Source: Terriglobia bacterium (GTDB taxonomy: Bacteria; Acidobacteriota; Terriglobia; Bryobacterales; Bryobacteraceae). From it: a stretch of DNA of 64,000 nt. The stretch covers positions 250,065-314,064 of the forward strand of contig CAWJUG010000004.1 of the NCBI GenBank assembly GCA_963846025.1, in the 5' to 3' direction. The notes under the pieces were generated by a model that saw nothing but the letters and a program-made list of their open reading frames with translations, was not told where the DNA came from and did no database searches. Of this stretch, positions 2,742 to 39,933 are shown piece by piece. Positions within the stretch are counted from its first letter, which is position 1. The number at the start of each line of letters is the position of its first letter. The position numbers and the translations under genes are program-made.

Positions 2742-4017
2742 GCGCGCTCACTTCCAACTCAACTAACCCTTGTGGACGCTGTTCCTGGATGTCGCTAAAT
2801 GAATCAAAACCTTTGAGGTATGCTTCGTGTGCGCGCTCCCAGGCGAAGTCGTCAGGCGGGCCCCACATGCGCGTATACTCGGGCGAGCCTGGATACGGAA
2901 ACAACGGAACAGGTTTATTGGCCCACACGCCATGCGATTCGAGCTTGACGCGCCAGGACTCCACTTCATCAGCATCGTCTTCCGTCATTGCGAGCAGATT
3001 TGCCTGGACGAAAGGAACAAGCTTTTTGGCGAAGACAAGCCGACCGGTGAGCTCCTCAGTCGACATTTTGCACTTTTTGTCAAGGTAAGCGCGGCCCGCT
3101 TCGGTTATGCTCTCGACACCGGCTTCAATCGACACGCAGCCGGCTCGTGCCAGCGCCGTTATAGCGTCTTCACTCCACAGGTCAAGGCGCGTTTGCACGC
3201 CGAGTTTTATCTCACGTTCTGCCAGCGCGGCAAGAAGCGCTAAATCGGGCAAGAAAATTTCGTCAATGAAGTAAACGTATTCGATCCCCTGCCGGATAAG
3301 TCCGTCCAGTTCTTGCAGGATTACTGGCAAAGGGCGCTTGCGATAGTTGTTGCGAAAATTGTCCTTGGCGCAAAACGTACAGTGGTAGGGACACCCGCGA
3401 GAGGCTTCCATTTCCGCGCCGGGCCCAAGCGGTTCGGCATCAAAGCGGTGATGATGATGCCGATGCTTTGCGATCAGCTTATCCGGCCACGCCAGCGCGG
3501 GAAGGCGCTTCATATCGGCAGCGCGATTGGGGCCCCGAATGATGATCTCATCTCCGCGCCTAAATGCAATCGATTGAACAGAGCCGATGTCACCGGCTAA
3601 TTGGGGCAAAACCTCTTCACACTCGCCAAGGACCACAAAATCGGCGTTTAGCTTGCGCAATGTCGCGCGGGGCGTTGTGGAGCCATGTGGACCAACGATG
3701 ATCTGCTTTGCAGGCACAGCGCGCAGCGCAGCCGAAAGCTCCTGCGGAACTCGCAACTCTGGAGGCGCACAGCGCCAGAAGAGATAGGTAGGCGCAGTAG
3801 TAATGACGATGAAATCGGGCGCATAGGCGGAAACCCGCTGTACGATATCGGGGTAGCCAAGATTATCGAGATGGCCGTCGATCAAGATCACATCATGCCC
3901 GTTCTGTTCGAGCAGCGCTTTCGAATATCCCAGTTCCAGAGCTAAATGAGGCTCGCGGCACCCAAAATAGATGCTGCCTTCAAACGTCCAAGGCGGGTTG
4001 ATCAACGCGTAGCGCAT
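2731..4017 (-). CDS. B12-binding domain / radical SAM protein (class B)
   Basis: CxxxCxxC cluster motif RGCPYHCTFCAK. N-terminal Rossmann-like cobalamin-binding region (MRYALINPPW...GHDVILIDGH...PDFIVITT). I chose the ATG at 4017, which shares one nt with the upstream stop (TGATG), rather than the ORF-track maximum at 4071. Confidence 0.85.
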   Translation of the reverse strand: MRYALINPPWTFEGSIYFGCREPHLALELGYSKALLEQNGHDVILIDGHLDNLGYPDIVQRVSAYAPDFIVITTAPTYLFWRCAPPELRVPQELSAALRAVPAKQIIVGPHGSTTPRATLRKLNADFVVLGECEEVLPQLAGDIGSVQSIAFRRGDEIIIRGPNRAADMKRLPALAWPDKLIAKHRHHHHRFDAEPLGPGAEMEASRGCPYHCTFCAKDNFRNNYRKRPLPVILQELDGLIRQGIEYVYFIDEIFLPDLALLAALAEREIKLGVQTRLDLWSEDAITALARAGCVSIEAGVESITEAGRAYLDKKCKMSTEELTGRLVFAKKLVPFVQANLLAMTEDDADEVESWRVKLESHGVWANKPVPLFPYPGSPEYTRMWGPPDDFAWERAHEAYLKGFDSFSDIQEQRPQGLVELEVSAHVR

Positions 4018-12521: not shown

Positions 12522-14293
12522 CTTTGTTCGCGTACCCTGCGCTGGTTTGTGTGAGGAATCAGCGGCAGCAGGATCTCGGAAGGATATCCCCTTGCATGTA
12601 AGATCGTCTGCCGCGCTTTCGTAAATCTGGTTTCATAGGCGATCGGGCGAACCGAATTCATATTACGGTCAAAACGCGGGAAGTTGCTGCTGGATACTTC
12701 GAGTCGAATGCGATGGCCGCCCGAGAAAACGTAGCTGGTCACGCCCGCATCGATGCTCACCTGATACGGCTGGTTCTTCTTGACGAAAACCGGCTTGGAC
12801 AGCGAAAGACGGTAGCGCAGCCTCTCCATCCCGTCTGCAACCAGTAACGGTCGGCCGTCGGGCTCCACGTCTACCAACTTGGCCGTGAAATCTGTGTCGT
12901 TAACAGAAGTCGATACATACAAAACGACGCGAATGGGGCCGGTGATTTCAATGTCGCTGCTGAGGGGAGCGGAGGTGTAAACCAGGACGTCCGGCCGCTT
13001 TTCGACCGCGCTTTGATCGAGCGGTCCGGGCGGCAGGAGCAGCGGATCACAACAGATTGCGCCGCCGTTAGTAGGAACCGGATTCTTAGGGTCATAGGTA
13101 AATTGATCGGAAGGCGCTTTTCGCACCGGCTGCCATTGCAGCGCACCATCTCCGGACAGAGAGTTGGCATGCCCGCTGCTGTTGAGGTACAGCGGAGTCA
13201 GACGCATCCTGGCTAGCGGCCATTCGTGTTCCTCGCGCCAGATGTTTGGGCCCATGACAAAGATGTGCAGCAGTGCGGAACCTGGTTTGATGCCGGAACC
13301 CACTGGGCTACCCTTTGTCCACCTGTCAAACCAATCCGCTTGCTTGGAGCGAATGGGCAAATTGGCCTGCATTCCGAAATCAACGCTAGGAAATTTTGTT
13401 GCAGGATTGTGGCTCCACGGGCCGATCCAGGTCTCGACCGTTTTGTGCTGTTTGGCTAAACGCGAGAATGCGTCGAGATCACTTTCTACGTATTCATCGA
13501 ACCATCCTCCGAAGGAGAGCACTGGGATTGAGATTTGGCTGAGCTTTTCCCGGATGCTGAGAGCTTTCCAGTATGCGTCGTCGGCAGGGTGAGCCAGCGC
13601 AGCGCGCCACGCCGGTAATACAACGCCTGTTGCTGCCACGTCGGCACTCACGAGAGGGATATGGCCGACATAGGTACTGAATAGCCGCCTCACTTCAGAT
13701 GCTGGAGTGAGATTCTCCGCCAACCAGGAAAGACGATGAGCTATCTGAAGCGCGCCCCCTGAGGAATAGAAGCGGTCGGTGTACTCGTCATCACCGGAAC
13801 ACATAGGTGAGATGGCGACCAGATGCGGATCCTGCTGAACGGCGGCCCACCAATCGGCGATGCCGAGATACGAGCTACCAGCCATTACCACTCGGCCGTC
13901 GGACCATGGCTGTTGCGCAATCCAGTTAATGGTGGCAACGCCATCGGGGCCCTCCTGCTGGGTAGTACCAAGAACGCCTTGTGACGCGTAACGGCCGCGC
14001 ACGTCTTCAATAACAACCGCGTAGCCGCGACGCCGAAAAAAACGGTAGCTCAGCATCGCTTGTAATTTCCGGTTGTAAGGAGTGCGAATGAGAACGGCTG
14101 GCCAGCGTCCCGTCCCGCGCGGCAGAAAAATGTCGGCGGCCAGATTAATGCCGTCGCGCATGGGGACAGAGACCCCGAGTTGTTCTGCAGGAGGAGGGCT
14201 GGCCGGAGGTTTTTTCGATGGGCTTTGAGCGAAAGCGCACGATAGAGTTAGCCAAATCAACGCCGTGATCGCAGTGCGAGCGCCCAAATTCAT
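12362..14293 (-). CDS. CocE/NonD family hydrolase (S15 X-Pro dipeptidyl-peptidase-like), secreted
   Basis: Signal peptide MNLGARTAITALIWLTLSCAFAQ. Alpha/beta-hydrolase region with GSSYLG nucleophile elbow and a C-terminal beta-sandwich. A roughly 65-aa tail extends antisense into the EamA gene. Confidence 0.8.
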   Translation of the reverse strand: MNLGARTAITALIWLTLSCAFAQSPSKKPPASPPPAEQLGVSVPMRDGINLAADIFLPRGTGRWPAVLIRTPYNRKLQAMLSYRFFRRRGYAVVIEDVRGRYASQGVLGTTQQEGPDGVATINWIAQQPWSDGRVVMAGSSYLGIADWWAAVQQDPHLVAISPMCSGDDEYTDRFYSSGGALQIAHRLSWLAENLTPASEVRRLFSTYVGHIPLVSADVAATGVVLPAWRAALAHPADDAYWKALSIREKLSQISIPVLSFGGWFDEYVESDLDAFSRLAKQHKTVETWIGPWSHNPATKFPSVDFGMQANLPIRSKQADWFDRWTKGSPVGSGIKPGSALLHIFVMGPNIWREEHEWPLARMRLTPLYLNSSGHANSLSGDGALQWQPVRKAPSDQFTYDPKNPVPTNGGAICCDPLLLPPGPLDQSAVEKRPDVLVYTSAPLSSDIEITGPIRVVLYVSTSVNDTDFTAKLVDVEPDGRPLLVADGMERLRYRLSLSKPVFVKKNQPYQVSIDAGVTSYVFSGGHRIRLEVSSSNFPRFDRNMNSVRPIAYETRFTKARQTILHARGYPSEILLPLIPHTNQRRVREQSQSKAIAMAPATIKAPPITFPGVNLSSRKNAAKRMTKTTLNLSIGATRDAGPT

Positions 14294-19095: not shown

Positions 19096-19734
19096 ATGGA
19101 AATCTTGGATGCGGCTGAAGTGCGCGTACTTGGATCGCTAATTGAAAAGGAAGCTACAACGCCAGAGTATTATCCGCTTTCGCTAAACGCGCTGATTAAT
19201 GCATGCAATCAGAAGTCGAATCGCGAGCCGGTTGTCGAGTACGACGAGGACACAGTTTACGATGCTGCAACTCGACTTCGTGAAAAGAAGCTGGTCTTAT
19301 TGAACACCGGGAGCGGCCGCGTCAACAAGTACAGCCAGCGCATTTCCGAGACGCTTAACCTGGGACGTAGAGAACTCGCTGTCCTTTGCACGTTGTTACT
19401 CAGAGGTCCGCAGACATTGGGCGAAATCAAAGACCGAAGCGAGCGAATGTTCGATTTTGCCGACCTCTTAGAGACGGAGTCGGTTCTGGAAAAGCTGTCG
19501 GATTTGCCGACAGCCGCCCTGGTGAGAAAACTGCCCCGGCAGCCCGGACAAAAGGAGGCGCGTTATGCGCATTTGTTATCTGGTGAGCCTGCGGCGGAGC
19601 TGGCCGCTTCCGGGGTGCAGACAACTCCGCCCACGACCAAAGTAGCTCAGCTCGAAATGGAATTGCAGCGCTTGCGATCAGAGTTCGAAGACCTGAAGAC
19701 ACGCTTCGAAACGCTGGAACGGCAACTCCAGTAA
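19096..19734 (+). CDS. YceH-family protein (DUF480/UPF0502)
   Basis: MEILDAAEVRVLGSLIEKEATTPEYYPLSLNALINACNQKSNREPVV matches the conserved YceH N-terminus. Coiled-coil C-terminus. Confidence 0.8.
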   Translation: MEILDAAEVRVLGSLIEKEATTPEYYPLSLNALINACNQKSNREPVVEYDEDTVYDAATRLREKKLVLLNTGSGRVNKYSQRISETLNLGRRELAVLCTLLLRGPQTLGEIKDRSERMFDFADLLETESVLEKLSDLPTAALVRKLPRQPGQKEARYAHLLSGEPAAELAASGVQTTPPTTKVAQLEMELQRLRSEFEDLKTRFETLERQLQ

Positions 19735-28587: not shown

Positions 28588-29058
28588 ATGGCAGCAACAC
28601 CGCCTGTCCGACGCCCAACGCGCAAAGAAATCGTCTTCTACTACAAGACCCATCGCTCACGGTTTCATGTGCCAGAGCAGATTCGCGTTTTCCATATTGT
28701 TAAGAATGTGAAGGAGGGCAGCGACCGCGACGCCATCGCCGCAACTATGCACAAAGCTCTCCAGGACCTTACAAGCCGTATTCCCTTCACGCAGGTTGCC
28801 GACCATTATTCCGACTGCTCCGGTAATGGCGGCGACCTCGGCTGGGTAGAGCGCGGAGTTATGGTTGAGGAGTTTGAGAGCGTAGTCTTCGACCTGCCGC
28901 TCGGTCAAATCAGTCCTATTTTTGAAAGCCGCTTTGGCTTTCACATCGCGCTTGTGACGGAAAAACGCGGCCCAGGCATACTTCCCGTTGCCGCTGTTTA
29001 CGACCAAATATCAGAATTCCTGTCGGCCCGCCGAACTGCCCAGGCAAGCTCCACATGA
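28588..29058 (+). CDS. parvulin-type peptidyl-prolyl cis-trans isomerase
   Basis: FHIVKNV...[43 protein letters not shown] matches the PpiC/rotamase domain. Confidence 0.75.
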
Positions 29059-30026
29059 GTAAGCCGCCCCATCCGTGCTGCGTTCCAAGCAAACAACGGG
29101 CGCTGGCGCTGGGTTTAGCGGGTGAAGCAGCATCACGCCGCGAGCAAGCGTTGACAGGTTCAGTCGAAAACATGTTGCGCATCGACGCCGGTTCCTTTCT
29201 GATGGGCTCGGAAACAACTCATAGCTTCCCGGCTGACGGAGAGGGGCCGGTTCGAAAAGTAACGCTGGATGCTTTCTACATCGATCGTTTCCCCGTTACC
29301 AACGAAGCCTTTGCCGAATTCGTGAATGCAACGGGTTATGTCACCGAGGCCGAGCGCTTCGGATGGTCGTTCGTTTTCGAAGGACACCTTTCACCGGAGC
29401 GGCGAGCTTCGCTGGTGCAGGATACAGTAGCGGCTGCGCCCTGGTGGTGCAAAGTGCGAAGTGCGAATTGGCGCGTTCCCGAAGGACCCGGCTCTACAAT
29501 CTCGAATCGGCCAAATCATCCCGTTGTCCATGTTTCCTGGAACGATGCCGTTCATTTTGCGAAATGGGCAGGCAAACGTTTGCCAACTGAGGCCGAGTGG
29601 GAATGCGCCGCACGCGGCGGACTCGAGCAAAAATTGTATCCCTGGGGCGACGAACTGACGCCCGGCGGCCAGCACCTTTGCAACATCTGGCAAGGAACCT
29701 TTCCGGTGCTGGATACGGCGGACGACGGATATTCTGCGCCCGCTCCGGTGGACGCATTCCCACCGAATGGCTTCGGACTGTACACAATCACCGGCAATGC
29801 ATGGGAGTGGTGCGCCGACTGGTTCAGCCCTACATTCCACATTTCGAGCACTCGCCTGAACCCGGCCGGCCCGATGAGCGGATCGGGAAAGGTCATGAAG
29901 GGTGGCTCATACTTGTGTCACGAATCGTACTGCAATCGTTATCGGGTCGCGGCCCGCACATCGAACACGCCCGATAGCTCAACTACGAACATCAGCTTCC
30001 GCTGCGCGCGCGACGTCGCCTCGTAA
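29055..30026 (+). CDS. formylglycine-generating enzyme family protein (SUMF1/FGE)
   Basis: [68 protein letters not shown] overlap with the parvulin gene. Confidence 0.85.
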
Positions 30027-31849: not shown

Positions 31850-33476
31850 CTATTTCTTGGCGGGCGAGATCCTGGAGGTCACTTTTCCCCAGTAAATACT
31901 GCAGTCCTTGATGTCTGCCTTTTGGGCAAAGACTTGGTCGAGATGCATCTCGTCGATACGATCGTCGTTGCAGCTTTCGACCGTATCGAACTTGCCGGCT
32001 TTGACTTCCGCATCGAGTTCTTTCTGGGACACGATGTGATAGAGCTTTTCTTCTGGCGCAGGCAGTTCGAGATTATGAGAATACGAAAATTCCATGCCGA
32101 ATGGAGGCGTGCGTTTGGTCAGGAAGTACACCAGCTCATCAGCGTAGACAATGCCATTCCTCGGGGTTACGGCATCCACCTTTCTTGCGATCTTTTCGTA
32201 ATCCTGCCACGTAGTCGAGTCACGCTCGTTGAACAGAGCGCGACCGTAGCCCAGAAGTAGCAGCGAAACCACGATTGCCGTGGGCCACAGCGGGCGCTGA
32301 TGCTCGCTGAGGCTGGAACCGGCTCCGTATAGCCCGACCGCCGCCAGGACGCTTACCAGGGGAATCGCAACAATAAAATAGCGGGCGAACGTGGGGTGCG
32401 CAGTTGCAATATAGACGATGAGAGCGGCGGCCGCTACTGCAGCCAAATAGAACTGCGCTCGGTTTGGCAGCGGCCAATGACTTTTTCTTGCCAAGAAGTA
32501 GACACCGAAACCCGCTAACAACCCGAGCAGCAGGGTCTGGCCATCGGCCAGCCATGCACTCAGGACATCTATATCGTGAGTTGTAGCGCCCGGCCAGTTT
32601 ACGCGGCGAAAAATAGTCTGATATTGCACCACGTTGAAGAAGACTTGGCGCGGCGCTTTTGCAAAAAGGCAGAAAACAGGAATAGAAGGGATGAGAGAAC
32701 CGAGAACGAAACGCCGCGGCATTCTTCACCCGGCCGGCCCGCTGCGCCCGCAAGCAAAACCAAAGGAAAAGGACGGGTGCGGCGGGAGCCGTCAGCAGGG
32801 TGCATTCAGCCGCGCCACCCGCCAAAAGCCCCGATGCAACCGCCAACCACGGCCGGCGTGGCTGAGCAGGCCAAGCTACGGCCACGCGGAATGCTGCGAA
32901 GACGAGCAGCATGCCGGCGGCATACGCTTGTGCAATAGGACCAAACTGCACGACTTCGCTGTGCAATCCGATAAAACAGACGGCGATTATCGCCGCGGGG
33001 CCACGCCAACGCGGAACGGGGAAACGGCTCAATAGGAACTGTGCCGCCAAGAACATCGTACCGGCAATCTCGAGTGCCGCCGGAATGTGCAGCACGCGCC
33101 AATGTTGCCCGAAGAAACGCATCCACGCAGCGTTCCAGTAGGCGTTCAGCGGAGTTTGCGGAAAACAGAAATCGATATAGGGAGTTTTGCCGCGATTGAT
33201 GAGCTGTGCCGCCAAAACATGGAAGCCTTCATCCCACACGAAGCCCATGGTCAAGGCGTACGCCAGCAGGCCCAGACTGAGGAGAGCGGTAATCCCGTAG
33301 ACCCAAAGGCAGGTCTTGGATGAGGACGTCACATACGGCTCTTCGGGAAGAGGGGGAGGCGTTGCGGATGTCGTAAGATCCACTCCGCGCGATGATACGA
33401 TGCGCGCTGGTCGATTTTCAACCGTGCTCTTGGCCAGGCCGTCCGGAGTGGACACCTGCGGAGGCACTCCGTGCAT
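31850..33476 (-). pseudogene. ArnT/PMT-like (GT-C fold) membrane glycosyltransferase, 1-nt frame disruption at the AAA/TTT run 32709-32711
   Basis: N-terminal frame reads ...FVWDEGFHVLAAQLINRGKTPYIDFCFPQTPL...RAGRVKNAAAF. The +1 frame continues VLGSLIPSIPVFCLF... with further TM helices and a soluble C-terminal domain. Confidence 0.65.
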
Positions 33477-33575
33477 GCTGGCAAGTCGCTGGCCAAAGCG
33501 TGGGAAAAATCCGACCTTACGACCAACCCTAGCAAAAGTAGGAAAAATCCTACCCGCCTATTCTGAGAAAACGGT

Positions 33576-33603
33576 TTGAATACGGCGCGATTTCCGTTAT
33601 AAA
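33576..33603 (+). promoter_or_regulatory. candidate sigma70-type promoter
   Basis: TTGAAT (33576-33581), a 16-nt spacer, then TATAAA (33598-33603), located in the divergent intergenic region upstream of the micro-ORF. No experimental support. Confidence 0.25.
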
Positions 33604-33769
33604 AAAGTACAGGACGCGCTCAACAAACAAGCTTAGATAACAAAGAACAGCCGACGCGAACAGGATTAAGTTCTGGAAAAGCGGAACGGCCGTAACGGGA
33701 CGGGTGTGTCTGGACGCAGCAACGTTTATGTCGGGCTATTTGAACGATTTAATTCAATTGAACCAAATC

Positions 33770-33797
33770 TGAGTTCTTGCCTGCCAGCAAGAACTCA
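33770..33797. promoter_or_regulatory. perfect 11-bp inverted repeat (operator or 5'-UTR hairpin)
   Basis: TGAGTTCTTGC-ctgcca-GCAAGAACTCA, bracketed by the direct repeat CAAATCTGAG. It ends 11 nt before the Shine-Dalgarno of the micro-ORF. Confidence 0.6.
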
Positions 33798-33820
33798 AAT
33801 CTGAGGAAAGGAGGATCGCC

Positions 33821-33871
33821 ATGAAAGTTAAGAGCAATGTGAAAGCTGGTCAATCCATTTGGCCGGCGTAA
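33821..33871 (+). CDS. 16-codon ORF MKVKSNVKAGQSIWPA (candidate exported peptide or regulatory leader peptide)
   Basis: AGGAGG at 33809-33814, 6 nt before the ATG. TAA stop. Followed by a terminator-like hairpin and the HlyD/PCAT genes. Too short for the ORF track. No homology evidence is available to me. Confidence 0.45.
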   Translation: MKVKSNVKAGQSIWPA

Positions 33872-33912
33872 TTACTGTATCGACGCCTTTTACAAAATCC
33901 TTTAGTGAATCA

Positions 33913-33948
33913 GGCCGCTCGCTTTTCTCTGGGCGGCCACTTCTTTTT
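33913..33948 (+). terminator. intrinsic-terminator/attenuator-like hairpin
   Basis: GGCCGCUCG-cuuuucuc-UGGGCGGCC (9 bp including 2 G-U pairs) followed by ACUUCUUUUU. It lies between the micro-ORF stop and the HlyD ATG (34004). Confidence 0.4.
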
Positions 33949-34003
33949 GGGGCGTTTTCTTAAAGCCTCGTCCTCTGCACTGAATGTATCGCCGGTTCGT
34001 GCC

Positions 34004-35159
34004 ATGTCCAATAGCTTCCGTCGAACAAATTTAACTCTAAAGAGTGATCACGGGAAAATTTCCGTCATTTTCTTAGCCACTGGGCTAATTCTGATTGGGG
34101 CCTGGATCGCGTGGGCTTTTCGCGCGCACGTCACCCGCTACGAGGTCTCCGATTCGGCGCGCCTGGAAGTCGCCGCTGCCACTTATCCCGTCCAAGCCGG
34201 GGTCTCAGGTAGGTTGACCGCCAACAAGTTGACATTAGGCCGCGAAGTGCAAGCAGGGGAGGTATTGGCGCAACTGGACAGCCGCGCCGAACAACTGAGC
34301 CTGGATGAGGAGCGCACCCGCACCGCCGCCTTTGAGCCGCAGTTAGCAGCTTTGCGTTCAGAGATGGAATCTGAAGGCGCGGGACGCCAGGACGAGCAAA
34401 ATGTTTTGAGTCTGTCCGTAGCCGCAGCGCAGGCGCAGCTTCGGGAAGCGGAAGCGCAAGCAGCGCTATCGAGCAGGGAAGCGCAACGCGCCGAAAGCCT
34501 GCGCAAAGGAAGGCATCATCGCTGAAGCCGAAGTTCAGCGTGCAGAGGCAGACGCGCAAAGCAAGCGCGCAGCGGCGGAAAACCTTCGTGCTGCACTGGC
34601 CCGTCTGACACCGGAACAGGCGGTGCGAGACACGGATCGCGATCTCAAAGTGCGCGAGCTTTCCGAGCAGATCGCTAAGTTGGATGCCGATTGGATGGCT
34701 TCGACGGCGACCGTGCGACGGCTGGAATACGAGATGGAGCGCCGTAAGATTCGCGCGCCGGTGGCAGGCCGTCTGGGCGAGTGCGCGGTTCTGCGGCCGG
34801 GCTCCCATATCACCGAGGGACAACAACTCGGCGTCATTCTGCCCTCTGGACGATTGCAAATTACGGCTGAATTTCAGCCTGCCGCGGCGCTAGGCAAGCT
34901 AAAACCAGGCCAAACAGCTACGATGCGGCTGCAGGGATTTCCCTGGGCGCAGTACGGAACTGTGCCCGCCAAAGTCGTGCAGGTGGCGAGCGAGATTCGC
35001 GATGGGAAAGTGCGCGTTGAACTGGCGGTAAACGGCTTTTCGTCTGCACGAATTCCTTTACAGCATGGACTGCCCGGTTCAGTCGAAGTAGAGATTGAGC
35101 GGGTGTCGCCGTTGGCCTTGATCATGCGGTCGGCAGGCGATCTGGTGGGTACTCATTGA
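34004..35159 (+). pseudogene. HlyD-family membrane fusion/secretion adaptor (NHLP-bacteriocin-system type), 1-nt frame disruption near 34508-34510
   Basis: N-terminal TM (ISVIFLATGLILIGAWIAWAF), a coiled coil, then frame +1 continues EGIIAEAEVQRAEADAQSKRAAAENL...RKIRAPVAGRLGE...GLPGSVEVEIE. Removing one G of AAAGGA restores LRKEGIIAEAE. Confidence 0.8.
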
Positions 35160-37846
35160 CACGCCCGCTGCCCAAATTTTTTCGAAAGTTTGCAAAGCGA
35201 ACCTTCTTTGCTCCCGAAGTGGTCCAGACTTCGAATCTGGACTGCGGACCAGCCTCCCTAAAGTGCCTGCTTGAAGGATTTGGAATTCCGGTCAGCTACG
35301 GCCGTTTGCGCGAGGAGTGCCAGACATCGCTCGACGGCACCTCAATCGACACGATGGAATTTGTCGCGCAACAGCTTGGGTTGGACGCCGAGCAAATCAT
35401 GCTGCCGTTGGACCATGTGCCGCTCCCGCAATCGCAGGCATTGCCGTCCATCGTAGTGGTGAAACTGGCAAGCGGCCTGACACACTTCGTAGTCCTTTGG
35501 AGAAAGCACGGAAAGCTTTTGCAGTTAATGGATCCGGCAACCGGACGCCGTTGGACGAGCATAGGCCAATTTGCGAGCGAGCTTTTCGAGCACACAATTG
35601 AGGTACCAGCGGCTGATTGGCGCGAGTTCGCGATATCGGCGGAATTTCAAGCCGCTTTACACGCACGGCTCCTGGCCCTTGGCATATCGGCACAGACGAG
35701 CGAGGAATTGCGAAGACACGCCTGCGATCAGAGCGGCTGGTATGGGCTGGCTTCGTTCGACGCAGCGGTTCGTGTTACTCGCGCGCTGCTAAGCAGCGGA
35801 GCAATACGGAGTGGGCCCGAGGCTAAACGATTTATCGGACAGCTCGTCGAATCCCCGGATTTGATTCCGGCGCGCTATTGGACGGCGCGTGAATCCGCAC
35901 AGCACGATGGCACGCAGCACGTGCTGATGTCGGGCGCAGTGCTGGTACGAGCAAAAGGGAAACGCGCTGTGGAGGCTGGTGGTTCAGCGGCAAACGGCGT
36001 CGCGGCGGCGCTCAAACAAACGCCAGTTTCTCCCGCCCGTGAACTGCTGCGCTTGTTATGGCAGAGCGGAGCGGCATCGCTCGGCACGGTAGGGTTTGCC
36101 GTAGCAGCAGCGGCAGCCGGCACAGTGATAGAGGCGCTGCTGTTTCGAAGTTTGTTCGATATTAGCGGTGAGCTTGCCTTGGCCGGGCAACGTATGGTAG
36201 CGATCGGCGCAATAGTGCTATTCGGCCTGGCTTTGCTCTTTCTTGAGCTCCCAGTATTCGTCCAAGTAGCTCGCGCCGGCCGGCAGCTCGAAAATCGGCT
36301 CCGCGTGGCCTTTCTCACAAAAATACCTCGGCTGGCGGACCGCTACTTCCAAAGCCGCTTAACGTCCGATATGGCCGAGCGCAGCCACGCAACCCACCGC
36401 TTGCGCCACTTGCCCGATCTGCTGAGGCAACTGCTAGGAGGCGTCTTCGAACTATTGGCCACCGCAACGGGAATCATTTGGCTGGATGCATCGGCGGCTC
36501 CGTTTGTCGTGATCGCAGTCGCGGCTGCCTTGGTACCGGCCTTCAGCACGCAGCCGCTACTTGCCGAACGCGATCTGCGAGTGCGCAGTCACGCCGCCGG
36601 CCTGACCCGTTTCTATTTGGACGCGATGTTGGGACTGGTCGCCATCCGCGCGCACGGAGGCGAGCAGAACGTGAGACGTGAGCACGAAACGCTTCTGCGC
36701 CACTGGGCCGATGCCGCGTTGCGTCTGCAGCGCGCCGTGGTTTGCATCGAGGGGATTCAGCTTACAGCCATGTTCGGGCTGGTTGCGATGCTGCTTCTCA
36801 CACGGCCACTCGCCGGCACAGATATCGGGCGCGCGTTACTGCTGGTCTACTGGGCCCTGAACCTGCCATCGCTCGGACAAGATGTCGCGGCGCTAACCCG
36901 GCAATATCCGTACTACCGGACCTTGACGTTGCGATTGTTAGAGCCGCTGGGCGCTCCCGAGGAGGAGAGCGCTGAGGACAAAAGCGCCGAGTCCGTCGGC
37001 CTAGGGGCCGCGCCTTCCATCGAATTTCAAGACGTTAACGCTGAGGCCTCAGGCCACACGATCCTACAACAAATCAGCGTACTCATCGAAGCCGGCACAC
37101 ATGTTGCTGTGGTGGGGCCATCGGGTGCGGGCAAATCCAGCTTTATCGGCATTCTACTTGGTTGGTTAAAGCCGAGCGGAGGACGAGTGCTGATGAACGG
37201 CGTTCCGCTGAATCATGCAAGCTTGCGACGCTCTGCGGCATGGGTCGATCCGGCAGTGCAGTTATGGAACCGTTCGCTGCTATCGAACTTGACTTACGGG
37301 TGCGAGTCTGCGGCCGGCGAAGTGGGCCATGCGGTTGACACGGCATTGCTGCGGCAGGTACTCGAGAATCTGCCTGATGGTTTGCAGACAAAGTTAGGCG
37401 AGGGCGGCGCACTGGTTTCAGGCGGCGAAGGCCAGCGAGTCAGGCTGGCCCGAGCGCTGCTGCGAAAAGACGCCCAACTTATTCTGCTGGACGAGCCGTT
37501 CCGCGGGCTGGACCGCGAAAAGCGCCGCGAGCTTCTGGAAAGAGCCCGGAGTCGCTGGCGTGGGCGCACAATGATCTGCATCACTCACGACATTGCGGAG
37601 ACGCAAGCGTTTCACCGGGTGCTGGTGATGGAAAACGGGCGCATAGTCGAAGACGGCGATCCGCGGGAACTTGCCGGCAACGAAGAGTCGCGCTACGCAC
37701 AGTTTCTTGCGGCGGAACGGCAGATACGCAACGGAATGTGGGGCGCGGACCTGTGGCGAAGAATCCGCATTCATTCCGGACAGGCGCTCGAAGAAGTGCC
37801 CGCGCCCGGAAAGAAACAAGAGGTTCGCGAGAGCGAAGTGGCCTGA
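35156..37846 (+). CDS. peptidase-containing ABC exporter (C39 peptidase + permease + ATPase; NHLP-type export ABC1-like)
   Basis: C39 triad context NLDCGPASLKCLL / LTHFVVLW / LMDPATG. Six-TM exporter domain. Walker A GPSGAGKS, signature VSGGEGQR, Walker B LILLDEPF. TTG start overlaps the HlyD stop (TTGA). Confidence 0.9.
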   Translation: MTRPLPKFFRKFAKRTFFAPEVVQTSNLDCGPASLKCLLEGFGIPVSYGRLREECQTSLDGTSIDTMEFVAQQLGLDAEQIMLPLDHVPLPQSQALPSIVVVKLASGLTHFVVLWRKHGKLLQLMDPATGRRWTSIGQFASELFEHTIEVPAADWREFAISAEFQAALHARLLALGISAQTSEELRRHACDQSGWYGLASFDAAVRVTRALLSSGAIRSGPEAKRFIGQLVESPDLIPARYWTARESAQHDGTQHVLMSGAVLVRAKGKRAVEAGGSAANGVAAALKQTPVSPARELLRLLWQSGAASLGTVGFAVAAAAAGTVIEALLFRSLFDISGELALAGQRMVAIGAIVLFGLALLFLELPVFVQVARAGRQLENRLRVAFLTKIPRLADRYFQSRLTSDMAERSHATHRLRHLPDLLRQLLGGVFELLATATGIIWLDASAAPFVVIAVAAALVPAFSTQPLLAERDLRVRSHAAGLTRFYLDAMLGLVAIRAHGGEQNVRREHETLLRHWADAALRLQRAVVCIEGIQLTAMFGLVAMLLLTRPLAGTDIGRALLLVYWALNLPSLGQDVAALTRQYPYYRTLTLRLLEPLGAPEEESAEDKSAESVGLGAAPSIEFQDVNAEASGHTILQQISVLIEAGTHVAVVGPSGAGKSSFIGILLGWLKPSGGRVLMNGVPLNHASLRRSAAWVDPAVQLWNRSLLSNLTYGCESAAGEVGHAVDTALLRQVLENLPDGLQTKLGEGGALVSGGEGQRVRLARALLRKDAQLILLDEPFRGLDREKRRELLERARSRWRGRTMICITHDIAETQAFHRVLVMENGRIVEDGDPRELAGNEESRYAQFLAAERQIRNGMWGADLWRRIRIHSGQALEEVPAPGKKQEVRESEVA

Positions 37847-39933
37847 TGCGAGTTGGCGCACTGCAGGCGATCGGCTGGCCCGCAAACCGTCTGCCCGATG
37901 CAATTCGAGAGTTATGCGAAAAGGGCGGCTTGCGAGTGCACGAGATTCTGCAGCACGCGGCGGATGCAGGTTCCAGCGGCAACCCCCGGGCGCGGATTGA
38001 GTGGCACGCCAAGGCGCTGGGGTGCGAAGCCGAGACATTGCACACTAATTTGCGTGATCTGGATGAGGAACTACGGTTCGCACATCCGGCGATTCTGCAG
38101 TTGAACGAAGACAGCTTCATCGCGATTCTGCGTAGCGGAAAGCGCGAAGCTCGCGTCCTGACGCCCGAGTTGAAAACTCAAAATATTTCGCTCGACGAAT
38201 TAGTGCGCGCCATTCGCGAGCCGCAGATGCAAGCGCTTCAAGAGCCCCTGCAGGAGTTGCTGGGCCGCACGGGGATCAAGCGCGCGCGGCAGAGCCAGGC
38301 GCTAGACAAGCTGCTGTCTGAGCAACTGGCGGTGAAGAGGTTTGAAGCTTGCTGGCTGCTACGGCCATACGCTGGTTCCCGTACATCTGAATGGCTACGG
38401 CAGACAAATGCATACGGGTTGGGCGTGAGCTTGGCAGCAACGCATACGATGCAATACATTTTTTGGCTGGCCTCGTGGTTCATCCTTGGAACGCTTTCAC
38501 TACAAGGGAGAATGGACCGCGGCTGGCTGCTCGCCTGGGCATTATTGTTGATGACATTAGTCCCCCTCCGCGTTTTCACGACCTGGTTACAGGGCGCACT
38601 GGCGATTGGAGTTGGCAGCGCGCTGAAAAGACGCCTGCTTCTGGGTGCTTTACGGCTTGCGCCAGACGAAATGCGGCATCAGGGTATTGGGTCTTTTCTG
38701 GCGCAAGTGCTGGAAACCGAAGCAGTGGAGAGTCTAGCATTAAGCGGCGGAATTGCAGGGCTCCTGGCAATTATTGAGATCGGGGTCTCTGGTTTCGTGC
38801 TGGGCCGATTCGCTTTGCTGCTGCTTGCCTGGTGCGCGATCACGATTTTTGCAGGCTGGCGTTTTCTGGCGCGTTACCAAAACTGGACCGGTGTGCGCAT
38901 GGAGATGACGCAAGATTTGGTCGAGCGCATGGTAGGTCATCGGACGCGCTTAGCGCAGGAGTCACAGGAGTCCTGGCACGAATCCGAAGATCAAAAGCTA
39001 GCAGACTATGTTCGCGCTTCTGGCAGAGTGGATAAGACCGGGGCCTGGCTGGTCGCGGCCATTCCGCGTGGATGGCTGCTGGCCGGAGTGGCGTGTCTGG
39101 CGCCCACGATTATCGTGAACAAGAGCTCAGCCTCTAGTCTTGTCGTGCTATTAGGTGGCATTCTGCTGGCCCAAACCGGTTTCAAGCGGCTGCAGGGCTC
39201 TTTTCTGGATATAGCTGGCGCTTGGGTTTCGTGGAAGCGAATTTTTCCCTTGTTCAGGGCCGCTGCCCGAAAAGAAGTTTTGGGCGCCGCCCCCGTGGCC
39301 AGCGAATCGCCGGAAAGATACGCACGGGTTGTGGAAGCCGACCGGCTGGTGTTTCGTTATCGCAAAGAAGGGCGGCCTGCCTTGCAAGGATTGACGATGG
39401 CAATTCATTGCGGCGACCGAATCCTTCTGGAAGGACCTTCAGGCGGGGGAAAAACAACGTTTGCATCATTGCTTTCTGGAGTACGCGAGCCCAGCGCGGG
39501 CCTGCTCCTGGTAAACGGATTGGATCGGCAAACACTAGGTAACGTGCAGTGGCGGAAGGCAGTGGCCGCCGCTCCGCAGTTCCACGAGAATCATATCCTC
39601 ACAGAGACGCTGGCATTCAATCTGTTGATGGGCCGCCGCTGGCCACCTACGCAACCCGATCTGGAGGAAGCCGAATGTCTGTGCCGCGAGTTGGGGTTAG
39701 GCACTCTTTTAGATCGTATGCCGGGAGGAATTCTCCAGATGGTCGGAGAAGGCGGCTGGCAACTATCGCACGGTGAGCGCAGCCGCATTTATATCGCCCG
39801 GGCGTTATTACAACAACCGGATTTGGTCATTCTGGACGAAAGCTTCGCTGCGCTGGACCCTGAGAGCCTGCAAACGGCGCTCGATTGCACCCTGAAGCGT
39901 GCTAAAACACTGATGGTAATCGCACATCCTTGA
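37846..39933 (+). CDS. ABC exporter permease/ATPase with a Cys-less C39-like N-terminal domain (NHLP-type export ABC2-like)
   Basis: ATG shares one nt with the upstream stop (TGATG). Walker A GPSGGGKT, signature LSHGERSR, Walker B LVILDESF. The N-terminal 130 aa lack the CG...H motifs. Confidence 0.85.
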   Translation: MRVGALQAIGWPANRLPDAIRELCEKGGLRVHEILQHAADAGSSGNPRARIEWHAKALGCEAETLHTNLRDLDEELRFAHPAILQLNEDSFIAILRSGKREARVLTPELKTQNISLDELVRAIREPQMQALQEPLQELLGRTGIKRARQSQALDKLLSEQLAVKRFEACWLLRPYAGSRTSEWLRQTNAYGLGVSLAATHTMQYIFWLASWFILGTLSLQGRMDRGWLLAWALLLMTLVPLRVFTTWLQGALAIGVGSALKRRLLLGALRLAPDEMRHQGIGSFLAQVLETEAVESLALSGGIAGLLAIIEIGVSGFVLGRFALLLLAWCAITIFAGWRFLARYQNWTGVRMEMTQDLVERMVGHRTRLAQESQESWHESEDQKLADYVRASGRVDKTGAWLVAAIPRGWLLAGVACLAPTIIVNKSSASSLVVLLGGILLAQTGFKRLQGSFLDIAGAWVSWKRIFPLFRAAARKEVLGAAPVASESPERYARVVEADRLVFRYRKEGRPALQGLTMAIHCGDRILLEGPSGGGKTTFASLLSGVREPSAGLLLVNGLDRQTLGNVQWRKAVAAAPQFHENHILTETLAFNLLMGRRWPPTQPDLEEAECLCRELGLGTLLDRMPGGILQMVGEGGWQLSHGERSRIYIARALLQQPDLVILDESFAALDPESLQTALDCTLKRAKTLMVIAHP

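Follow-up and report, generated by a model that had tools for sequence, protein, structure and literature searches.

Double-glycine-type leader peptides are processed by peptidase-containing ABC transporters (PCAT/AMS), as described for ComC/ComA, class II bacteriocins, class II microcins and class II lanthipeptides. In these systems, a small ribosomal precursor is encoded next to an ABC transporter with an N-terminal C39 cysteine protease and, in diderm bacteria, an HlyD adaptor; the leader is conserved and the core variable, and copies are often tandem. The canonical leader forms an amphipathic helix with GG, GA or GS at positions -2/-1 and hydrophobic residues at -4, -7 and -12 (and -15 for ComA), and it has been noted that LahT150 cannot process leaders lacking the hydrophobic residues at -4, -7 and -12 (PMC10885120). 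Class II microcin leaders have about 15 residues, and shorter characterised leaders are not known to us. In Gram-negative bacteria, PCAT cargo is classically microcins and bacteriocins (PMC10986499; PMC10885120).

Another example is the NHLP/Nif11 three-gene export cassette, which consists of an HlyD-like adaptor (TIGR03794), an ABC protein with a peptidase (TIGR03796) and an ABC protein without one (TIGR03797), and in which it was argued that the NHLP leader, of more than 70 residues, is conserved because of handling by the transporter rather than by a modifying enzyme (Haft et al., 2010; PMC2887384). Microviridin/marinostatin graspetide precursors (Pfam PF12559, NCBIfam NF033738) carry a PFFARFL-type leader helix and a T-x-K-[YW]-P-S-D-type core and are encoded next to an ATP-grasp ligase; the identity of their leader protease has been listed as an open question (PMC8939145). 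Very short signalling-peptide precursors occur in Nostoc, where PatS is a 13-17 residue precursor that has no KAG-type leader and is not encoded next to its exporter. Nostoc also has the PCAT HetC, which is thought to export a signalling peptide but whose substrate is still unknown (PMC10986499). Lastly, arrest and attenuation leader peptides such as TnaC and SecM are short ORFs upstream of the operons they regulate, with a conserved C-terminal arrest motif ending at or near the stop codon or with coupling to alternative terminator/antiterminator structures.

A 16-codon ORF upstream of an HlyD/PCAT/ABC cassette

The locus considered here lies in a 64,000-nucleotide stretch of a Terriglobia bacterium assembly (GCA_963846025.1, contig CAWJUG010000004.1, positions 250,065 to 314,064), hereafter the window. 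A preliminary description had pointed to a 16-codon ORF with a strong Shine-Dalgarno (SD) sequence, preceded by a perfect palindrome and followed by a terminator-like hairpin, directly 5' of HlyD/PCAT genes. This observation was confirmed (Table 1). The ORF encodes MKVKSNVKAGQSIWPA, which comprises a 10-residue leader and a 6-residue core, and this is, to our knowledge, among the smallest precursors of its type. AGGAGG-N6-ATG occurs 3 times in the window against 0.52 expected from shuffles, so a short ORF with an SD sequence is not decisive on its own, and what takes it beyond chance is conservation.

Table 1. Features of the locus, in coordinates of the window.
Position	Strand	Feature
29055-30026		FGE-sulfatase-like gene
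33764-33805	+	10-nt direct repeat CAAATCTGAG (33764-33773 and 33796-33805), flanking and overlapping the hairpin arms
33770-33797	+	Upstream hairpin, 11-bp perfect stem: arms 33770-33780 (TGAGTTCTTGC) and 33787-33797 (GCAAGAACTCA), loop CTGCCA (33781-33786); conserved core GCCYGCCAGC
33809-33814	+	SD sequence AGGAGG; 6-nt spacer ATCGCC before the ATG
33821-33850	+	Leader, M1-K-V-K-S-N-V-K-A-G10; predicted PCAT recognition and cleavage module, predicted cut after Ala9-Gly10
33851-33871	+	Core, Q11-S-I-W-P-A16, the predicted secreted hexapeptide, plus the stop TAA (33869-33871)
33872-33912	+	Non-coding 3' spacer (41 nt from stop codon to terminator stem); conserved TCG just after the stop and a CTTTA-type element before the terminator
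33913-33948	+	Intrinsic-terminator-like hairpin GGCCGC...GCGGCC (33913-33938; 9 pairs, 7 of them G-C), followed by the T-run ACTTCTTTTT
34004-35159	+	HlyD-family periplasmic adaptor gene, with a 1-nt insertion (frameshift) near 34500-34506
35156-37846	+	PCAT: C39 domain (residues 22-142), an insert of about 170 residues with no family match, then the TMD and NBD
37846-39933	+	Second ABC transporter subunit (ABC2) without an active peptidase; its start ATG overlaps the PCAT stop (TGATG)

Orthologous HlyD/PCAT/ABC loci from about 55 Bryobacteraceae-like MAGs carry the same 15-17-codon ORF, often in 2-3 tandem copies, and the best genome relative has 80% PCAT identity. There are 66 short ORFs of the family in related loci, all with an AAGGAG(G)-type SD. 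The preliminary description had named third-position-biased substitution and preservation of the ATG and stop in related genomes as one test of the ORF, and this test supports a protein-coding gene. In 56 unique 16-codon genes, leader codons 2-10 have entropy of 0.3 bit or less at nearly all first and second positions but 0.4-1.7 bits at third positions, while M1, G10 and the stop are invariant. Pairwise codon differences in the leader are 4924 synonymous against 2311 non-synonymous, as opposed to 1609 against 5013 in the core. In the core, positions 11-13 and 16 are hypervariable, whereas Trp14 is present in 53 of the 56 genes and Gly15 in 49; Pro15, as in the window, occurs in 2, the other being a copy in the related locus L007. 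Within a genome the core is under purifying selection, as 22 of 26 tandem pairs encode identical peptides despite up to 9 nt differences.

The same leader, MK[VI]K[ST][NK]VKAG, heads at least 271 distinct tiny peptides in genomes and soil metagenomes. Among these 271, M1 and G10 are invariant, and entropy is 0.7 bit or less at positions 7-10 but jumps to 3.7-3.9 bits at positions 11-13, straight after Gly10. Positions 9-10 are Ala-Gly in 262 and Ser-Gly in 9, so that Gly at -1 is invariant but -2 is never Gly. Position -4 is Val, Ile or Leu, position -7 is Lys or Arg with the hydrophobic residue at -8 instead, and -12 and -15 cannot exist in a 10-residue leader. Core length ranges from 3 to more than 20 residues across the family. 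The leader pattern gave only one hit in viral contigs.

The preliminary description had also warned of single-base insertions, which could make the true product a peptide of about 27 aa read in the +1 frame. This caveat is correct for the window: HlyD carries one extra base, located by comparison with the related locus L001, and the upstream membrane-protein gene is split into two overlapping ORFs whose L001 counterparts lie in one frame. It does not apply to the ORF, which has the family's modal length of 16 codons and its stop at the family position, and the +1-frame product is rejected by the family alignment.

Flanking hairpin, spacer and terminator

In 61 family copies, the upstream stem pairs in 85.5% of cells, against 28-47% when the partner is slid, with 83 double-sided changes against 13-26 in the slid controls, and 0 of 500 shuffles reach the observed value. 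Of 30 such hairpins in 1.4 Mb of related loci, 27 lie less than 80 nt upstream of a family ORF. The hairpin is specific to the W-type subfamily (x-x-hydrophobic-W-G-A), being found in 54 of 101 W-type units against 4 of 188 other short units. In the stem, G.U pairs show no excess over A.C mismatches (28 against 38), so that a DNA-level palindrome is not excluded. The direct repeat is partly conserved in two alignments (A1 and A2).

In the spacer, T145, C146 and G147 of alignment A2 are invariant, and there are indels directly after the stop and no 3-nt periodicity. A kissing interaction between the hairpin loop (CUGCC) and a post-stop GGCAG was considered but rejected, since the window and L001 have TCGAC there. 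The terminator stem ends are invariant in 32 aligned loci and the loop is variable; the terminator follows the last copy of tandem arrays only, and is present in 43 of 101 W-type units against 2 of 188 other short units. A permissive Rfam 15 scan of 33000-34600 gave only sub-threshold noise, the best hit being TD-2 at 23.8 bits against a gathering score of 48.7 (E = 0.92).

The adjacent transporter genes

The PCAT matches Pfam Peptidase_C39 (1.3e-20), ABC_membrane and ABC_tran, and Gln, Cys, His and Asp align with PCAT1 (4RY2) in the segments vrQydltDCG, aHFVV and vaDPgkg; in PCAT1 these are the oxyanion-hole and catalytic residues. The ORF ends 1.3 kb upstream of the PCAT start, with only HlyD between them. 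The N-terminal 125 residues of ABC2 align weakly with the PCAT C39 domain (E = 0.025, 20% identity), with the catalytic His and Asp positions replaced.

The three-gene architecture, which is conserved in more than 70 loci, is that of the NHLP/Nif11 cassette, and TIGR03794, TIGR03796 and TIGR03797 are the best-scoring NCBIfam models. However, scores are far below the equivalog cutoffs: 192.9 against 853.3 for TIGR03796, 110 against 709.4 for TIGR03797 and 29.8 against 156.2 for TIGR03794, the last further depressed by the HlyD frameshift. Pfam HlyD_3 is also below cutoff. HlyD co-occurs with the PCAT in 70 loci. The cargo has no NHLP (TIGR03793) or Nif11 (TIGR03798) domain. As was argued for NHLP, its leader appears to be conserved because of handling by the transporter rather than by a modifying enzyme.

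Linkage was seen in both directions of ascertainment. In a PCAT-ascertained set of 75 orthologous loci, the peptides lie about 150-450 nt upstream of HlyD in essentially every Bryobacteraceae-like locus with intact upstream sequence. In peptide-ascertained metagenome contigs, 17 of 26 W-type peptides with at least 1 kb downstream are followed within 90-630 nt by HlyD/PCAT homologues, while many family members with other core types are not adjacent to a transporter. Tandem arrays reach 12 copies in one related locus (L030).

The same module in a microviridin cluster

An example in which the leader module occurs in genuine RiPP precursors is an Isosphaeraceae microviridin cluster (L038), where an orthologous HlyD/PCAT/ABC2 cassette is accompanied by four precursors and two MvdD-type ATP-grasp ligases. 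These precursors (PF12559 at 30.1 bits; NF033738 at 45.7 and 35.1 bits) read PFFARYLEEQ..VKTNVKAG and then the core, which places the motif exactly where the leader is removed. This is the module that makes up the whole leader of the window peptide, which has no ATP-grasp recognition helix, no T-x-K-[YW]-P-S-D core and no ATP-grasp ligase nearby.

Apart from the L038 microviridins, no NCBIfam hit was obtained for any family peptide of 20 residues or more. NCBIfam and Pfam scans of extended or frameshifted versions of the ORF and of 20-40-aa relatives gave nothing, and NCBIfam has no model for the multi-unit NHN relatives. Full-text searches for strings of the leader motif (such as NVKAG) returned only unrelated papers, and keyword searches on PCAT, short leaders and Acidobacteria found no description of this family.

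Interpretation

The interpretation in the preliminary description was partly supported. Of its two readings, a tiny exported peptide cut after K-A-G by the C39 domain to release QSIWPA is well supported by comparative evidence, whereas a TnaC/SecM-like regulatory leader is not. It was also correct that the leader would be an atypical substrate, while the suggested pyroglutamate formation is not a family feature, since Gln11 occurs in only 20 of 56 genes.

We consider it likely that the ORF encodes a precursor that is the dedicated cargo of the adjacent HlyD/PCAT/ABC2 exporter. In this view, residues 1-10 form a minimal, non-canonical double-glycine-type leader, which the C39 domain would recognise and cut after Ala9-Gly10. 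The core (QSIWPA here; usually x-x-hydrophobic-W-G-A) would be pumped across the inner membrane by the PCAT/ABC2 pair and pass through the HlyD adaptor, presumably with a TolC-like channel encoded elsewhere, to the outside. The strong SD would give a high precursor yield, and we also propose that the conserved 5' hairpin stabilises the short transcript and that the strong terminator after the last peptide gene is leaky, letting fewer transcripts reach the transporter genes. The analysis establishes that the ORF is coding and under purifying selection, that it has a leader/core architecture and is linked to the exporter, that the protease catalytic residues are intact, and that the motif lies at the leader/core junction of known RiPP precursors; translation, the cleavage site, leader removal by the C39 domain, export itself, the stoichiometry role of the terminator and the function are inferred, without direct evidence of translation, cleavage or export.

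Other points speak against this view. As opposed to the canonical leaders, this one has Ala-Gly rather than GG/GA/GS and Lys rather than a hydrophobic residue at -7, and its pattern is alternating basic and hydrophobic rather than an amphipathic helix; the core is also far smaller than known cargo. Because of the HlyD frameshift, the exporter in this genome is either inactive or the sequence contains an error. Multi-unit relatives repeat the leader motif inside one ORF, and a single cut after AG does not explain how their internal units are released.

As to function, our best but tentative guess is a diffusible signal, although no receptor was identified. The core is tiny, it is identical among most paralogues within a genome but differs between genomes at 3-4 positions, which resembles pherotypes, and the locus sits among housekeeping genes at a conserved chromosomal position. 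As with PatS, this would be a very short signalling-peptide precursor in a Gram-negative bacterium that also has a PCAT, though there is no sequence similarity.

Alternatively, the peptide may be exported as proposed but serve another extracellular role, such as an antimicrobial, metal-binding or matrix function, which appears somewhat unlikely. The classical cargo of PCATs in Gram-negative bacteria and the highly diverse cores of the wider family, as is typical of competition-driven diversification, would fit this role. However, six residues is far below the size of known PCAT-exported bacteriocins, no immunity gene is conserved in the locus, and the conserved synteny is with housekeeping genes rather than in a mobile island.

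It is also possible, though rather doubtful, that the core is modified before or after export by enzymes encoded elsewhere, for example on Trp14 or by cyclisation, so that the product is not the plain hexapeptide. The leader module is used by genuine RiPP precursors, Trp14 and Gly15 are nearly invariant, as would be expected of a modification or recognition site, and the many family peptides away from transporters suggest that unlinked partners are normal for this family. A GT-C/ArnT-like membrane glycosyltransferase gene is divergently adjacent in 25 loci, but it is syntenic only within one clade and its position and orientation vary. No candidate modifying enzyme co-occurs with W-type genes across loci, where only the three transporter genes do, and the FGE-like neighbour has no counterpart in any related locus. 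A 10-residue leader also leaves little room for a separate enzyme-recognition sequence, whereas L038 has the extra PFFARYLE helix for that purpose.

A regulatory leader peptide, in which translation and possibly stalling at W-P-A-stop would control termination and so set HlyD/PCAT expression, is very unlikely. While a short ORF with a strong SD and a conserved Trp does lie directly upstream of a terminator-like hairpin and the transporter operon, W-P-A-stop is not a family trait, the C-terminal half is hypervariable and of variable length, relatives have long, unrelated cores, and the conserved part is the N-terminus, which recurs in RiPP precursors at the cleavage junction. The tandem arrays with a terminator only after the last copy, the many members without an adjacent transporter and the distance from stop to stem also speak against it, and no antiterminator pairing of the ORF 3' end or spacer with the terminator arms was found in the sequence or the MFE fold.

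A non-coding element, either a small RNA of about 180 nt (5' hairpin to terminator) or a DNA operator palindrome, with an incidental ORF, is the least likely, since, despite the covarying hairpin and terminator and a fold better than shuffled controls (z = -2.9), substitutions have 3-nt periodicity, the ATG, Gly10 codon and stop are invariant, most tandem paralogues differ only by synonymous changes, no Rfam family matches and the peptide leader is conserved in phyla that lack the hairpin and terminator, so that the RNA elements are better read as accessories of a coding gene.

Implications

The locus shows that a conserved gene family of 13-25 codons is systematically missed, since no gene caller reports ORFs this short and neither Pfam, NCBIfam nor the searchable literature has the motif, yet a single degenerate DNA pattern hit at least 120 contigs in one metagenome scan; for the locus itself, a pattern such as ATGAARRTNAARASCAANGTNAARGCNGG would serve in isolate genomes. 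A 10-residue leader ending in Ala-Gly, without the -7 or -12 hydrophobic residues, would be the shortest known and would extend the rules for C39/PCAT substrate recognition, and it could be useful as a compact secretion and cleavage tag in Gram-negative hosts. The same module at the junction of microviridin precursors points to the leader protease for those clusters.

A more far-reaching possibility, which remains doubtful but is not excluded, is that MK[VI]K[ST][NK]VKAG is a minimal, portable secretion-and-cleavage tag for a distinct clade of Gram-negative PCATs, heading a very large, unannotated family of ultrashort peptides (13-25 aa) in soil bacteria. The W-type hexapeptides of Bryobacteraceae would then be strain-specific secreted pheromones, which would make this a chromosomally conserved peptide quorum-sensing-like system in Acidobacteria, a phylum with no known peptide signalling. 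Acidobacteria are abundant in soil but poorly understood, and a conserved, predicted secreted hexapeptide with pherotype-like variation gives a directly testable handle on cell-cell signalling or competition in this phylum.

Sequence features of the locus

The short open reading frame (ORF) and its flanking signals were found exactly as the preliminary description had reported them, with a Shine-Dalgarno (SD) sequence, a 16-codon ORF encoding MKVKSNVKAGQSIWPA, a perfect inverted repeat upstream and a G+C-rich hairpin with a T-run downstream, followed on the same strand by genes for an HlyD-family adaptor, a PCAT and a second ABC protein (ABC2). The arrangement AGGAGG-N6-ATG occurs three times in the window, as opposed to 0.5 expected, and the translation signals are therefore unusual but would not on their own prove a gene.

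Features of the window and of related loci (L-numbers denote individual loci carrying related cassettes or peptides)
Feature	Position	Strand	Description
Multi-TM membrane protein gene	window 31850-33476	-	Divergent from the peptide gene; two overlapping ORFs
Direct repeat	window 33764-33773 and 33796-33805		10 nt, CAAATCTGAG; brackets the hairpin
Upstream inverted repeat	window 33770-33780 and 33787-33797		Perfect, 11 bp, around the loop CTGCCA
Shine-Dalgarno sequence	window 33809-33814		AGGAGG, 6-nt spacer to ATG
Short ORF	window 33821-33871	+	ATG at 33821, sixteen sense codons, TAA at 33869-33871
3' spacer	window 33872-33912		Non-coding, between stop codon and terminator
Terminator-like hairpin	window 33913-33938		G+C-rich, followed by a T-run
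HlyD-family adaptor gene	window 34004-35159	+	One extra base near 34500-34506 (region compared 34490-34510)
PCAT gene	window 35156-37846	+	ABC transporter with N-terminal Peptidase_C39 domain
Insert within the PCAT	window 35573-36085	+	About 170 residues between the C39 domain and the first transmembrane region
ABC2 gene	window 37846-39933	+	True start 37846; no recognisable peptidase
N-terminus of ABC2	window 37846-38295	+	Weak, colinear alignment with the PCAT C39 domain
Other AGGAGG-N6-ATG sites	window 13942-13956	-	
Other AGGAGG-N6-ATG sites	window 19553-19567	+	
Tandem array	L030 4677-6350	+	12 leader-bearing ORFs upstream of the cassette
Multi-unit precursors	L034 2694-2940 and 5786-6210		
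Multi-unit precursor	L068 7368-7750		
Multi-unit precursor	L057 about 3140-3542	-	
Microviridin-type cluster	L038 6604-16835		HlyD, PCAT, ABC2, four precursors, two ligases

The preliminary description had also raised the possibility that a single-base insertion hides a longer product in the +1 frame, and this is ruled out for the short ORF by the alignment of related genes. Frameshifts do exist elsewhere in the window, where the HlyD gene carries one extra base relative to the related locus L001 (CTGCGCAAAGGAAGG against CTGCG-AAAAGAAGG), which splits it into two frames. This is either a sequencing error or a genuine pseudogene, in which case the exporter would be disabled in this particular genome. 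The upstream membrane-protein gene is likewise split into two overlapping ORFs, whose counterparts in L001 lie in one frame. Its product has no Pfam, NCBIfam or PDB sequence match; however, some homologues are named ArnT-like glycosyltransferase and one carries PF13231 (PMT_2), which suggests a GT-C fold enzyme. It lies within 8 kb of the cassette in 25 related loci, in variable position and orientation, and any link to the Trp-containing peptide is pure speculation.

Conservation and coding character of the short ORF

A search of species-representative genomes with the PCAT protein returned 75 orthologous loci with 40-80% identity, mostly from Bryobacteraceae and other Acidobacteriota MAGs, with Pyrinomonadaceae, Thermoanaerobaculia, Myxococcota, Planctomycetota, Verrucomicrobiota and Beta/Gammaproteobacteria also represented. 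In a motif scan of these loci, the same tiny ORF was found about 150-450 nt upstream of HlyD in essentially every Bryobacteraceae-like locus whose upstream sequence is present, examples being MKVKSNVKAGQSIWGA, MKIKSNVKAGRTMWGA and MKIKSNVKAGKCMWGQ, and it often occurs in two or three tandem copies. All 66 short ORFs listed from these loci have an AAGGAG(G)-type SD.

Across 56 unique 16-codon genes, leader codons 2-10 vary almost only at third positions, and M1, G10 and the stop are invariant, while codons 11-13 and 16 vary at all three positions; Trp14 is kept in 53 of 56 genes and Gly15 in 49 of 56. The Pro15 of the window is rare but not unique, as one copy in the related locus L007 reads SAIWPV. 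Within a genome, tandem copies encode identical peptides in 22 of 26 pairs although they differ at up to 9 nucleotides, and the core is therefore also under purifying selection inside each genome while it diverges between genomes. Taken together, the ORF is a real, conserved protein-coding gene.

Distribution and diversity of the peptide family

The family is much larger than the clade of the window. A scan of metagenome contigs with a degenerate DNA pattern for the leader matched at least 120 contigs, most of them apparently from soil, and the 120 retrieved gave 232 further peptides with a modal length of 16 aa. When all sources were pooled, 271 distinct peptides of 60 aa or less were obtained, in which entropy is 0.7 bit or less at positions 7-10, with Val/Ile/Leu at -4, Lys/Arg at -3, Ala (or Ser) at -2 and an invariant Gly at -1, and jumps to 3.7-3.9 bits at positions 11-13. 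This is the signature of a leader/core boundary immediately after Gly10.

The cores fall into many subfamilies, which include x-x-hydrophobic-W-G-A (the type of the window, here W-type, with 74 peptides and about 67 different cores), GVVLGD, EGNGLDPHGDPKP, PRDCGGGG..., SPTLPLPPPGRR and NRCDTVRR, among others. In L030, a Pyrinomonadaceae MAG, the 12 ORFs of the tandem array have Pro-rich, Gly-terminated cores (..DPPIIVQGGG and similar). In some phyla, the leader motif (L)KVKTNVKAG(G) is repeated 3-5 times within one longer ORF, each time followed by a core of about 12 residues of the form x-x-L-N-H-N-x-T-L-x-R-G; such multi-unit precursors were seen in L034, L068 and L057, in L049 and L065, and in many metagenome loci. 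One such protein has 623 homologues in a collection of 5.8 billion proteins, and among the 120 best that were listed, nearly all are named only "hypothetical protein" and all but one lack a Pfam domain. A single cut after AG does not explain these multi-unit relatives, as it would not account for the release of their internal units.

Role of the conserved leader

The C39 domain of the window PCAT aligns with that of PCAT1 (4RY2), with Gln, Cys, His and Asp, which are the oxyanion-hole and catalytic residues of PCAT1, conserved in the aligned segments, and the protease is therefore predicted to be active. The insert that follows the C39 domain has no Pfam match and makes this PCAT (896 aa) much longer than PCAT1 (730 aa). 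The N-terminus of ABC2 aligns with the PCAT C39 domain only weakly (E = 0.025, 20% identity over 114 residues), the positions of the catalytic His and Asp being replaced by Phe and Thr and, by extrapolation of the alignment register, that of Cys by Arg; it may be a degenerate C39-like domain, as in HlyB-type transporters.

The most informative relative is L038, from an Isosphaeraceae MAG, which holds a complete microviridin-type graspetide cluster, where an orthologous HlyD/PCAT/ABC2 cassette is followed by four precursors and two MvdD-type ATP-grasp ligases. The precursors are genuine members of the microviridin/marinostatin family (Pfam PF12559 at 30.1 bits against a cutoff of 21; NCBIfam NF033738 at 45.7 and 35.1 bits against 26) and read ...PFFARYLEEQ-x5-VKTNVKAG-core(..KWPSDDDE..). 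The motif that makes up the entire leader of the window peptide therefore sits exactly between the ligase-recognition helix and the core of a known RiPP class, which is where the leader is cut off. This is taken as independent evidence that x-K-T-N-V-K-A-G is the recognition and cleavage module of this PCAT clade, and it points to the PCAT as the leader protease for these graspetides.

Linkage to the exporter also holds in the reverse direction. Among W-type peptides found through the peptide pattern alone and with at least 1 kb of downstream sequence, 17 of 26 are followed within 90-630 nt by HlyD/PCAT homologues. Other core types are mostly unlinked, as is also known for NHLP/Nif11 precursors (PMC2887384).

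Conserved elements flanking the ORF

W-type gene units have the same layout, in which a hairpin is followed by the SD and the ORF, with a terminator after the last copy. The hairpin and the GGCCGC...GCGGCC terminator are specific to the W-type clade, being present in 54 of 101 and 43 of 101 units, respectively, as opposed to 4 of 188 and 2 of 188 for other short peptides. The stem of the hairpin covaries, with 85.5% of cells paired against 28-47% when the partner is slid and 83 double-sided changes against 13-26, and 0 of 500 shuffles reach the observed value. The loop GCCYGCCAGC is conserved, and of 30 such hairpins in 1.4 Mb of related loci, 27 precede a family ORF. No Rfam family matches. 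G.U pairs show no excess over A.C mismatches, a comparison that does not distinguish an RNA element from a DNA palindrome; action as RNA is favoured because the stem covaries while an asymmetric loop is conserved.

The second copy of the direct repeat that brackets the hairpin ends 3 nt before the SD, and the repeat might allow an alternative pairing that affects SD access. In the alignment of related loci, the spacer after the stop codon contains an invariant TCG (usually within TTCTCTTCGG) and a conserved (A)CTTTA(G/A) just before the terminator, for which no explanation was found; a loop-kissing interaction was considered and rejected. It may be that the hairpin stabilises or delimits the tiny transcript, and that the terminator is leaky and sets a high precursor-to-transporter ratio, as in many bacteriocin and lanthipeptide operons, although both roles are inferred.

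Relationship to known systems and proposed mechanism

In the proposed model, the peptide would function like a double-glycine-type leader peptide, but it lacks two defining features of that family as stated in PMC10885120, as the cleavage dipeptide is AG rather than GG/GA/GS and the hydrophobic positions at -7 and -12 are absent. The transporter resembles the NHLP/Nif11 three-gene cassette but scores far below the equivalog cutoffs. No Pfam or NCBIfam model and, in the literature searched, no paper describing the motif was found.

The interpretation offered in the preliminary description is supported in part, as one of its two alternatives, a tiny exported peptide cut after Ala-Gly, agrees with the comparative evidence, while the other does not. 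The comparative data establish that the ORF is coding and under selection, that it has a leader/core architecture, that it is linked to the exporter, that the catalytic residues of the protease are intact and that the motif lies at the leader/core junction of a RiPP. It is inferred from these data alone, without expression, cleavage or export data, that the peptide is translated, that the C39 domain cuts after Ala9-Gly10, and that QSIWPA is exported by the PCAT/ABC2 pair through HlyD and an unlinked outer-membrane channel. This overall model is held with good confidence, although the HlyD frameshift means that the system in this genome may be broken or mis-sequenced. The core may or may not be modified, with neither alternative clearly favoured, and no modifying enzyme is conserved with W-type genes. 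The second alternative, a regulatory arrest or attenuation leader, is not supported, as the W-P-A-stop ending is not a family trait, the C-terminal half is the variable part, copies are tandem with the terminator only after the last, many members have no transporter downstream, and no antiterminator was found on reading the sequence and its predicted fold.

With regard to function, a diffusible signal is the leading but tentative guess, made without a known receptor. The predicted product has six residues, and it is identical among paralogues in most pairs but differs between genomes at three or four positions, which resembles pherotypes. The locus also sits among housekeeping genes (Fe-S/CCG oxidoreductase, PPIase, DUF4159, cytochrome c, SIS, secretin, ArgJ, Fmt) in conserved synteny.
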